Source of the DNA: a virus | Taxonomy: Duplodnaviria; Heunggongvirae; Uroviricota; Caudoviricetes | Reading direction: 5' to 3' (one strand) | Virus record (IMG/VR): IMGVR_UViG_3300028456_000007 | Length of the DNA stretch: 40,058 bases | The notes under the pieces: model-generated | The model's input: only the letters and a program-made list of their open reading frames with translations | Database searches by the model: none | Told to the model about the DNA's origin: nothing | Shown: positions 1,203-29,162 of the stretch, in pieces | How the letters are laid out: each line of letters opens with the position of its first letter | Numbering within the stretch: the first letter of the stretch is position 1 | Translations under genes and position numbers: made by a program

Positions 1203-1340
1203 TTCATAGGTGGTGATTTTTTTAAAATGTCTTTAGACATAATGTCGTTCACTTAAGTGTGATGGTACTGCGTTTCACCAGATAATGGTTTTTTGATATC
1301 TTAATTTCCCTCGCTGGGAGGGTAAATACAGGTAGCATGA

Positions 1341-2375
1341 ATGCCACTAAAAGCGTCACTTAACGGAAAAGAAATTCATTCTTTTGAATTTAACTCTCAG
1401 GAATGGGAATATCTTAAACAGACATATAAAAGCCAGTCTTTGTTTATGTCGTGCTGTGGTCAGCCTGGTATACCTAAAACAAGCAAACTTAATAACTATT
1501 ACTTTGCACATAAATCCAAAAGCGATTGCCTGTATGCGAAAGAAAGCGCAGAACATTTATATCTCAAATTCTTAATCGCAAAATTAGCCAGTGATGCTGG
1601 CTGGTCAGTTACTACCGAAAAACAAGGGGCGACCCCAGCAGGAGAACAATGGATTGCCGATGTGTTTTGTACCAGAAATAACGCGAAACTGGTTTTCGAA
1701 GTACAGTTATCACCGCAAAAAGACGATGAATTTAAAGAACGTCAAAAACGATATATCGCATCAGGAGTCCGTGCACTGTGGTTGCGAAAGTTACGTAAAG
1801 GAAGTAAAGAGCATGGTGGGAATATATACCATAGCTACGATTTACCTGTTTTTGGTGTGCGTCAGAATGAAAATGGGGACTTGTATCTACCACAGTTTGG
1901 GATTAGTGTCAGGGAGTTTATCGCGGGTGTTTTTGCCAGAAAGCTATTATGGTTCCCAAAGGTTGGGGATGTGCTGACTGCAAAAATAGAATCGCGAGTT
2001 ACAAAATGCTGGAGATGTAAGAAACGAACTGGAATTATCAGAGGTATTTCTGTTTACAGTAAGTCCGTATTCGTCAAGTTTTTATCTTTTCGTGATTCTG
2101 ATGTCAAAGAACTAATAGCCACTCACGTGGATAACAAAAAACTCTGGGCGGCTGGAATTGGTACTGTTAAGGACAGAGACAGTGATTGTTATTTATCTAA
2201 CTGTTGCATACATTGTTATTCGATTATAGGAGATTTCTTTTTATTAGAGGTTTTCGACTATCCGAATGATAAACAAAAGATAATGATAGAATTTACTTTT
2301 AATTATGCTAGCAATATGAAAATCTTATCCAGCGAGTGGGTATTTGATGGTAAAAAAGCTGAAATATTTTTCTGA
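1341..2375 (+). CDS. CoiA-like family protein (predicted PD-(D/E)xK-type nuclease with Cys clusters)
   Basis: 344-aa ORF; CC..YYFAH motif followed by ESAEH..K..E..QWIADV..FEVQLS resembles competence protein CoiA family; extra CWRC...NCCIHC cluster; GGGAGGG SD upstream; clearly AT-rich versus rest of window. Confidence 0.55.
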   Translation: MPLKASLNGKEIHSFEFNSQEWEYLKQTYKSQSLFMSCCGQPGIPKTSKLNNYYFAHKSKSDCLYAKESAEHLYLKFLIAKLASDAGWSVTTEKQGATPAGEQWIADVFCTRNNAKLVFEVQLSPQKDDEFKERQKRYIASGVRALWLRKLRKGSKEHGGNIYHSYDLPVFGVRQNENGDLYLPQFGISVREFIAGVFARKLLWFPKVGDVLTAKIESRVTKCWRCKKRTGIIRGISVYSKSVFVKFLSFRDSDVKELIATHVDNKKLWAAGIGTVKDRDSDCYLSNCCIHCYSIIGDFFLLEVFDYPNDKQKIMIEFTFNYASNMKILSSEWVFDGKKAEIFF

Positions 2376-2535
2376 TGCTGTCTTATCCTCGTTGCCATCC
2401 CGAAATGACAGGAACATCTGTGGGATGTTCTGGGTATTGTGTTCATAACAAAATGCCCCCAACTATCAGAGCCGAGGGAAATTAAGATATCAAAATAACA
2501 TTATCTGGTGAAATGCAGAGCAGCTCATCTTAAGT

Positions 2536-2562
2536 GAACGGCATTGGCCTTTATGCGTTTTT
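2536..2562 (+). terminator. weak candidate terminator downstream of CoiA-like gene
   Basis: short stem GCAT..ATGC followed by T8 run (2555-2562). Confidence 0.25.
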
Positions 2563-2885: not shown

Positions 2886-3170
2886 TCATAATTCTGTGCT
2901 GGTGGCAGGAATTAATTTCTGCCAGATAGCTGAAACATATTTTGCCTGATGACGAGCATCAGCCAGGGCGTTGTGCCGTTCGCCATCGAAAGGCATGTCC
3001 ATTTTGGGGTCGAATCCGATGGAACGCCCAAGCGTAACGATCGTGCGTACATCGTGATCATTCCAGTACGCCCATGGGCAGATTTGTCCTGCTCGTTCAT
3101 AAGCTCCGCGTAAAATTACGTTGTCGAAGGTGGCCCCGTTACCCCAAACTTTTAAATATTTCGAAAACAT
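2886..3170 (-). pseudogene. DEDD-type 3'-5' exonuclease, C-terminal fragment only
   Basis: Exo II-like WGNGATFD and Exo III-like HNALADARHQA motifs present but no Exo I region; ORF starts immediately after stop of upstream HD gene. Confidence 0.4.
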
Positions 3171-16118: not shown

Positions 16119-16439
16119 ATGAAAGATGGTATCTATTTTGTTGTTTTCAGAAGCAATCAACGTGATTTTGGTAATGGTACCGTAGTTGTCAAAAACAATG
16201 CAGTAAACGGCGGAGATTTTGGTTTTACGTATCAGGGAAAAATTGACGGTAGCCAACTTATTCTGCGCGTATCGCAGCATGATTTAAATGTCACCTCGGT
16301 TTTCCCTGGGGTAAAGAACTTTGAATTGAGTCTTTCTTTGCAGGAACGAGGACGTGATTACCTGTTAAATGGATCTGTGGTCGGAATGCCTCAGATGCAA
16401 ATTTCAATTAGTGCAAAATACATTGGTGATCTGATTTAG
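16119..16439 (+). CDS. hypothetical protein (moron between lysis and packaging genes)
   Basis: 106-aa AT-rich ORF with its own downstream terminator. Confidence 0.45.
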   Translation: MKDGIYFVVFRSNQRDFGNGTVVVKNNAVNGGDFGFTYQGKIDGSQLILRVSQHDLNVTSVFPGVKNFELSLSLQERGRDYLLNGSVVGMPQMQISISAKYIGDLI

Positions 16440-28609: not shown

Positions 28610-28673
28610 TATAACTACTTTAATCAAGTAGGGTTATTGAGTGGTAAAGTTTGTGCTGAATGTAGGAGAGAAT

Positions 28674-29162
28674 ATGAAGAAAATGTTTATATTGTTGTTG
28701 GCTGTAGGACTGCCATTAAACTCCTTTGCGAAGCCAGTAACGGAAAAGCAGCTTGCTACATACTTTATAGATAACGTTAAAACTTCAGCGGATAAGAATA
28801 TAGATCTAGATGTAGAGGGAATAAATAGACTGTCTGTAATATGCCCAGCAAAGTCGGCAAGTGGAACTCTTTTAATAAAAAAAGCATCCTACGAGTTTAA
28901 TAAAAGCATTGGTGCTTTTGATTTTGAAAATAACTCACAATCTGCACCATTGACTTTTATTGTACCAATTAGTGAGGATGAAAATAACTTTGACTCGGAA
29001 ATTATTGGTTTCTCTTTTGCATTTAAAATGCCAAGAGGGCAATTCTTTGTTGATGTTACGAAAACAGGGAAGGTAAAGGCTGGCGTAAATATTAGTGGTG
29101 AAAGCGGAATTACTTATTCATCATGTAGAATAGATACTCATAATGTTGATTATGATCGTTAA
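28674..29162 (+). CDS. secreted hypothetical protein (moron inside tail operon)
   Basis: AGGAGA SD before ATG 28674 (MKKMFILLLAVGLPLNSFA signal peptide); strongly AT-rich; own terminator. Confidence 0.55.
   Translation: MKKMFILLLAVGLPLNSFAKPVTEKQLATYFIDNVKTSADKNIDLDVEGINRLSVICPAKSASGTLLIKKASYEFNKSIGAFDFENNSQSAPLTFIVPISEDENNFDSEIIGFSFAFKMPRGQFFVDVTKTGKVKAGVNISGESGITYSSCRIDTHNVDYDR

Follow-up and report, generated by a model that had tools for sequence, protein, structure and literature searches.

The CoiA-like gene at the left edge of this prophage is a real and well-delimited feature, a restriction-fold nuclease gene borne on a mobile element and a candidate defence gene. Its product would be a stand-alone, structure-specific DNA endonuclease of the CoiA family, built of three parts: a putative N-terminal zinc finger, a predicted catalytic core of the PD-EXQ type and, at the C-terminus, a domain with four invariant cysteines. 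Beyond the candidate nuclease itself, two things make it worth attention, namely the unmatched, putative zinc domain at its C-terminus and its delivery by a cassette derived from an IS4-family insertion sequence. The window (the whole 40,058-nucleotide stretch analysed here) is 99.4-99.9% identical to the prophage that lies in dusA of E. coli ETEC H10407, where RefSeq (PGAP) calls the gene 'competence protein CoiA', a name that is probably misleading for the family.

The CoiA-like protein and its domains

The gene and the three parts of its product are placed as follows.

1341..2375, + strand: CoiA-like ORF with an ATG start, 344 aa
1341..1535, + strand: part 1 of the CDS, N-terminal beta-rich, zinc-finger-like domain (aa 1-65; C38, C39, H57 and C63 invariant)
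1536..1925, + strand: part 2, PD-(D/E)xK core of the CoiA 'PD-EXQ' type (aa 66-195; D107, E120, Q122, R134, K76 and H72)
1926..2375, + strand: part 3, C-terminal domain of about 150 aa (C223, C226, C289 and C292 invariant, W333; fold unmatched)

A CoiA-like arrangement had been proposed for this protein from the letters of the sequence, together with an extra cysteine cluster, and every element of both is found in the ORF: C38-C39, Y53YFAH57, E102-QWIADV108 and F119EVQLS124 for the former, and C223xxC226, C283 and C288-C289xxC292 for the latter. The assignment also stands up to a profile search, in which Pfam CoiA_nuc (PF06054) matches aa 68-194 with E=7.4e-10 and 39.6 bits, the curated cutoff being 20.3 bits; a precomputed PF06054 match exists for most of the homologues as well. 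CoiA_N (PF25164) scores 18.6 bits on the N-terminal domain, below its cutoff of 26.3. By Pfam's criterion, then, the protein belongs to the CoiA nuclease-domain family. A phmmer search against the PDB sequences gave nothing significant, the best hit (E 0.97) being a CCHHC zinc finger.

In a 49-sequence alignment of the family, the four N-terminal residues C38, C39, H57 and C63, the core residues K76, D107, Q122 and R134, and the C-terminal C223, C226, C289, C292 and W333 are all invariant, and E120 is at least 90% conserved. The AlphaFold model is confident and has three domains (pLDDT 90.7, pTM 0.85), with an AF2 pLDDT above 89 in the N-terminal domain, and the PD-EXQ residues sit on its strands 103-112 and 115-122. 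The protein thus has the PD-EXQ site, with Asp in beta2, Glu-x-Gln in beta3 and a conserved Arg, as well as the alpha-beta-beta-beta-alpha-beta core fold with acidic catalytic residues that defines the PD-(D/E)xK superfamily, of which it is a member by fold. A 2005 study (PMC1189080) placed CoiA nearest to COG4636/1wdj and described it as a variant of the PD-EXQ type in which one more Arg is conserved; the domain anatomy seen here agrees with that description. To go by the motif, the catalytic pair would be equivalent to D95/E105 of S. pneumoniae CoiA.

The gene is under purifying selection. A comparison of the Salmonella copy with that of E. coli gives an overall dN/dS of 0.21-0.32; the N-terminal and nuclease domains have the lowest values (0.04-0.23) and the C-terminal domain the highest (0.32-0.54), a pattern that would fit a conserved catalytic engine joined to a faster-evolving recognition module.

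That C-terminal domain is matched by no Pfam model of any kind (aa 196-344, across 29 family members), and a structure search with it found no match in the PDB or among the viral structures of BFVD; modelled by itself, it is nevertheless predicted with confidence (pLDDT 88.6). In Actinobacteria the four-cysteine domain occurs without a nuclease domain, either alone, in proteins of about 145 aa, or joined to DUF5710 (PF18974, 72 bits), at loci L070 3010-3522, L073 9030-9635, L071 and L074-L076, and it is therefore an independent module. With no solved or viral relative, the module could be a new sensor or DNA-binding domain.

In base composition the gene, with 37.8% GC (GC3 33%), is the minimum among all 1035-bp sliding windows of the 40 kb (mean 50.4%, sd 5.5%). 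The sequence-only reading had called it far more AT-rich than the phage genes around it. This is so relative to the phage body but not relative to the adjacent cargo genes (GC 38-43%), which are AT-rich themselves (the 139-aa ORF 38.3% GC, the excisionase gene 41.4% and the Panacea gene 43.1%), so the contrast is one with the phage body only. Two other patches of the window are AT-rich, 28641-29162 and 16119-16439 (GC 0.38-0.39). In one of them, a 173-aa ORF whose N terminus resembles a signal peptide is inserted between a tape-measure-like gene and the tail gene after it. The other contains a 106-aa ORF, with a small lipoprotein-like gene on one side and an HNH gene on the other, and both ORFs look like additional cargo.

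The prophage edge and the insertion

The order of features at the left edge is truncated dusA, Panacea gene, 139-aa ORF, 57-aa ORF, CoiA-like gene and PrtN-family excisionase gene.

1-573: Panacea-domain gene (PF13274, 70.9 bits)
570-989: 139-aa ORF, overlapping the Panacea gene by 4 nt, without a Pfam match and matching phrog_19071
1029-1202: 57-aa ORF, left of the CoiA-like gene
2568-2876, - strand: PrtN-family/excisionase gene, right of the CoiA-like gene

In the matching genomes the truncated dusA fragment lies about 250 bp to the left of window position 1, which makes the gene region the edge of the prophage. The neighbours are those named in the sequence-only reading, which had seen a single gene between a Panacea pair and an excisionase-like gene, with the 57-aa ORF to be added on the left. 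The pair of Panacea gene and 139-aa ORF is present in about 560 E. coli genomes; standing at the extreme margin of the prophage, it resembles a PanA antitoxin paired with an unclassified toxin. The window does not have 1,443 bp of the ETEC H10407 prophage (window 3158-3163 against L001 14165-15607); this deletion shortens the 3'-5' exonuclease gene to 94 aa (2886-3170) and takes out two more genes, so that the window represents a variant, not an exact copy, of the H10407 prophage.

The flanking cargo is found in 562 of the 5,426 complete E. coli genomes and the CoiA-like gene in 12 of them, while in about 550 E. coli genomes these flanks enclose an empty site that is without the gene. At the empty sites the excisionase gene begins 47 bp after the 57-aa ORF. 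Window positions 1-1221/1236 and 2547-2880 align to these sites, which places the insertion at about 1237-2546, within a bidirectional terminator hairpin. The same flanks with an empty site in so many genomes directly support acquisition, and the recent arrival that had been suspected is in fact an insertion polymorphism, carried on an IS4-derived cassette.

At the left junction (window 1225-1240) the hairpin reads ATGTC-TTTA-GACAT, where the empty-site terminator (L077/L078) reads CCGCC-TTTA-GGCGG. The stem thus shows three apparently compensatory changes within 14 nt, in surrounding flanks that are 97-98% identical, which suggests that the cassette entered a different terminator allele or that the stem was reshaped after insertion.

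The IS4-derived cassette

The inserted segment consists of an arm, the gene and a second, inverted arm.

1239..2546, + strand: whole non-autonomous cassette of 1.3 kb (arm - gene - arm), absent from related prophages
1229..1238, no strand: left copy of the putative target-site duplication (GTCTTTAGAC), in the remnant of the terminator hairpin
1241..1313, + strand: left terminal arm, starting AATGTCGTTCACTTAAG, matching IS4-family transposase pseudogenes (their terminus and 3' coding end) at 80-82% identity
2395..2546, - strand: right terminal arm, inverted, ending ...CTTAAGTGAACGGCATT, 78-79% identical to IS relics over 150-152 nt
2547..2556, no strand: right copy of the putative target-site duplication (GCCTTTATGC)

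The ends of the arms coincide with the boundaries of the empty-site alignment. The arms are inverted repeats of each other (46 nt at 93% and 17 nt at 94% complementarity), and both are 78-85% identical to the same end of one IS4-family element, which is their source. The only long ORF between them is the CoiA-like gene, and there is no transposase inside. The parent element has a DNA match in 2,721 of the 5,426 complete E. coli genomes; all four of the copies inspected (L086 3001-3260, L087, L088 2518-3414 and L089 2511-3824) are annotated pseudogenes, the K-12 copy lying between tdk and adhE, and the ORFs of the L089 relic encode a DDE_Tnp_1 transposase domain. The two flank copies in the window, GTCTTTAGAC and GCCTTTATGC, agree at 7 of 10 bases only; the empty site (L077/L078) reads GCCTTTAGGC within AAAACCCGCCTTTAGGCGGGTTTTTT.

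The cassette is also found at a second site. In other E. coli strains an 89%-identical homologue adjoins thiM/thiD at the edge of a primase-bearing element (L079/L080), and its DNA homology to the window covers exactly 1242-2551, arms included; at this site (L079) a perfect 10-bp direct repeat, CCTTCAAAGG, flanks the cassette. No complete RefSeq E. coli genome contains the second-site cassette.

From its sequence organization, the cassette is a non-autonomous one of the mobile-insertion-cassette kind. Such mobile insertion cassettes, or cargo-carrying MITEs, include MIC231 of Bacillus cereus, which is built from IS231 ends. Like them, the present cassette has two inverted IS ends flanking a passenger gene without a transposase, bordering putative target-site duplications and an IS4-family origin. 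Unlike them, it has taken both arms, of 73 and 152 nt and thus long, from the same IS end, it carries a putative defence nuclease as passenger, and the copies of its parent IS seen in E. coli are all decayed. A non-autonomous cassette made of two inverted copies of one IS4-family end would then have dropped the gene into the cargo at the dusA edge.

The family and its genomic neighbourhoods

A word-indexed search returned 71 clusters of homologues, and an exhaustive profile search at least 806 representatives at 50% identity with E<=1e-30, and 5,536 with E<=1e-3; nearly all of the 806 are 320-390 aa long and match from end to end. A few members carry additions, P0167 (511 aa) having an extra C-terminal Bles03 domain at residues 401-486 (PF08939, E=3.9e-25) and P0072 and P0170 C-terminal extensions of about 100-130 aa. 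Related loci, found with a 22-sequence alignment, are sparse and occur in Proteobacteria and a small number of other phyla, Poribacteria among them. Members lie on islands and prophages, in P4-like satellites with AlpA, DUF927 primase and Ash, and in 99 plasmid records, including conjugative plasmids of Aeromonas; a few viral contigs also carry the gene. A literature search found no paper on this CoiA-like family.

The neighbourhoods were compared with PADLOC models, using 327 ORFs within 3.5 kb of 58 homologues and crude ORF calls. Strong matches among these neighbours are to SIR2-HerA, Septu and Shango, to type I, IIG and ISP restriction enzymes, to DISARM DrmD and HKD+Snf2, and to BrxH, PbeA and MADS components. 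By our rough estimate a recognised defence gene lies within 3.5 kb at roughly 40-50% of the loci, but these are aggregated counts without a matched background control and the enrichment in defence neighbours is therefore qualitative only. Read in that qualitative way, the homologues recurrently adjoin diverse known defence systems, as genes of defence islands and cargo regions do. A Caballeronia homologue, for example, directly follows a Type ISP restriction enzyme gene.

On pAsa4 of Aeromonas salmonicida (L096 1099-5032), an AAA-family ATPase and UvrD-helicase pair stands immediately upstream of the homologue and looks Gabija-like by its composition. A search for a conserved partner gene gave none; type I restriction R subunits, which make up the largest cluster of neighbours, are present at 8 of 62 loci.

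In one subgroup (L014, L023 11133-12599, L053 and L069 11148-12476) the family adjoins a DUF7830-DUF6035-DUF7829 protein (PF25169/PF19500/PF25167), and the two could form a two-nuclease module there. The neighbour has a sister three-domain plan, with a Cys-rich N-terminus, a CoiA-related core and a C-terminal domain, and there are weak reciprocal matches, of our protein to DUF6035 (18.5 bits) and of the DUF7830-DUF6035-DUF7829 proteins to CoiA_nuc. It differs in having other N- and C-terminal domains, and these proteins are uncharacterised.

Comparison with CoiA and with known defence systems

In the pneumococcal CoiA a zinc finger forms the N-terminus, and the extension at the C-terminus is uncharacterised; the enzyme needs both D95 and E105, nicks supercoiled DNA, cuts 5'-3' ssDNA-dsDNA junctions and resolves transformation D-loops (bioRxiv 10.1101/2024.02.06.579203). 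Our protein resembles CoiA (S. pneumoniae CoiA/B. subtilis YjbF; PF25164 + PF06054) in its zinc-finger-like N-terminal domain followed by a PD-EXQ core with the conserved Arg, in the similar overall size of its C-terminal extension, and in sharing the same nearest solved folds (COG4636/DUF820, 1wdj). The canonical CoiA is reported to be a core competence gene restricted to Bacillota, with YraN in its role elsewhere (bioRxiv 10.1101/2024.02.06.579203), whereas our family is sparse, rides on mobile elements and belongs to Proteobacteria and a few other phyla. Its CoiA_N score lies under the cutoff, its C-terminal domain, with a four-Cys signature of its own, is also without a Pfam match, and no link of the family to RadA or the competence regulon is seen.

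The sequence-only reading knew of no named defence system built on a CoiA-like protein, which does not hold: DruB, a component of the named anti-phage system Druantia, has a CoiA-like domain by HHpred, the type I protein giving a 99.6% match to PF06054 over residues 1-150 (DefensePredictor Table S5, PMC13092281). DruB is, however, larger and the product of one of five genes (DruA-E), whereas our protein stands alone, without DruA, DruC, DruD or DruE neighbours, and it remains true that no described system is a stand-alone protein of this architecture. A second CoiA-similar protein is the B component of PD-lambda-4, a defence system of E. coli whose activity plaque assays have confirmed (HHpred probability 93.6%, residues 1-66 only; Vassallo et al. 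2022, Table S3). That system differs in comprising two genes, 4.6 kb in all, with a P-loop partner, and the similarity is confined to the zinc-ribbon part of the old Pfam model; limited as it is to residues 1-66, PD-lambda-4B was set aside as a close relative. With single-protein PD-(D/E)xK defence nucleases such as Shedu SduA and the type IV restriction enzymes our protein has no specific sequence or domain homology beyond the superfamily fold.

Possible functions

The likeliest job of the protein would be single-gene defence or exclusion, directed against phages or other invading DNA. That it is a stand-alone nuclease of this kind, with a CoiA-like action on structured or junction DNA and zinc domains for recognition, we regard as about evenly balanced between right and wrong. 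The defence function is a candidate one, suggested by genomic context: relatives beside anti-phage systems, and arrival on a transposon-derived cassette, make the gene a good candidate for novel single-gene defence. If pneumococcal CoiA is a guide, the core might nick or cleave DNA at ssDNA-dsDNA junctions, in D-loops or in supercoiled form, and the fast-evolving C-terminal domain, presumably zinc-binding, would supply recognition of the target or the trigger.

Several observations count against the defence reading. No family of PADLOC-DB v2.0.0 (2023 library), which we take to include models for Druantia (DruB) and PD-lambda-4, matches the protein at E<=1; NCBIfam gives no match; in PHROGs there is a non-significant match only and no annotated PHROG model; and a promoter scan found no sigma-70-like site upstream of the gene on the + strand. 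In the window the allele also departs from the family consensus in its C-terminal motif, with a 4-aa deletion, G288C, and Tyr after C292 where most members have Asp. Cargo regions of mobile elements, moreover, carry non-defence genes too.

One alternative is that the protein serves the elements that carry it, as a resolvase of recombination or replication intermediates such as D-loops and branched DNA, and does not attack competitors. It is favoured by the D-loop resolvase activity of the canonical CoiA and by the presence of the family on prophages, satellites and conjugative plasmids; phages, moreover, commonly encode structure-specific nucleases, and this prophage has RusA. The gene is dispensable, however, having been added by a transposon-like cassette where some 550 related prophages do without it; it has no conserved recombinase or helicase partner, and the neighbours of the family are mostly defence genes and not replication modules. 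We consider this function unlikely.

A toxic, non-specific DNase, inactive until triggered, that mainly kills the host or stabilises the element by abortive infection or addiction and does not single out invader DNA, strikes us as improbable to the same degree. Such a role would suit a single-gene nuclease with an extra, regulatory-looking domain, next to a Panacea-type, toxin-antitoxin-like pair in the window, and abortive infection is the mode of many single-gene defence systems (Vassallo et al.). Against it, no conserved antitoxin-like partner accompanies the family, and the canonical CoiA is a structure-specific nicking enzyme and not a bulk DNase; the idea also overlaps with that of a defence nuclease, from which it differs in mode of action only.

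It is very improbable that the protein mobilises its own cassette, as a transposase or homing endonuclease of the PD-(D/E)xK type that recognises the terminal inverted repeats, even though long repeats of this kind stand exactly at the ends of the insertion with only this ORF inside, and the cassette has been inserted at two sites. The Salmonella copy (79% identical) has the coding region alone in common with the window and is without arms, and flanking inverted repeats occur at none of about 58 distant homologue loci, so the arms belong to the vehicle and not to the protein family. They are copied from one end of an IS4-family element, the transposase encoded by that element is of the DDE type, and the 10-bp duplication fits transposition by a DDE enzyme of that family. 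Terminal inverted repeats as a family-wide trait, with the protein as their transposase, were rejected on the same grounds, since such repeats occur in just two places, the window and the E. coli copy of 89% identity.

That the gene encodes a true competence protein CoiA acting in natural transformation, as its PGAP name and its CoiA nuclease domain might suggest, is the least credible reading of all: the canonical gene is reported only from Bacillota, with YraN in the role elsewhere, while this one is prophage-borne, cassette-delivered and present in 0.2% of E. coli genomes (12 of 5,426), with relatives on islands, plasmids and satellites, a CoiA_N score below cutoff and a C-terminal domain without a Pfam match.

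Implications

For the defence nuclease, a more specific proposal can be offered tentatively, as one that has rather less than an even chance of being right. The protein may be the E. coli member of a large, uncatalogued single-gene defence family (at least 800 clusters at 50% identity) in which a CoiA-type nuclease for junctions and D-loops, guided by a zinc domain of new fold, attacks the replication or recombination intermediates of invaders. In E. coli its gene would spread from one prophage or satellite to another as passenger on an IS4-derived cassette. If this is true, a mobile insertion cassette is here the vehicle of a defence gene. Should the gene prove protective against phages or plasmids, a compact (1 kb) and widespread nuclease family would join the defence catalogue, and CoiA, the D-loop resolvase of transformation, would be linked to immunity. 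It would also support the idea, hinted at by DruB, that structure-specific recombination nucleases have been recruited to recognise the DNA intermediates of invaders. The cassette, for its part, offers a concrete route by which single defence genes could hop between the cargo regions of unrelated mobile elements.
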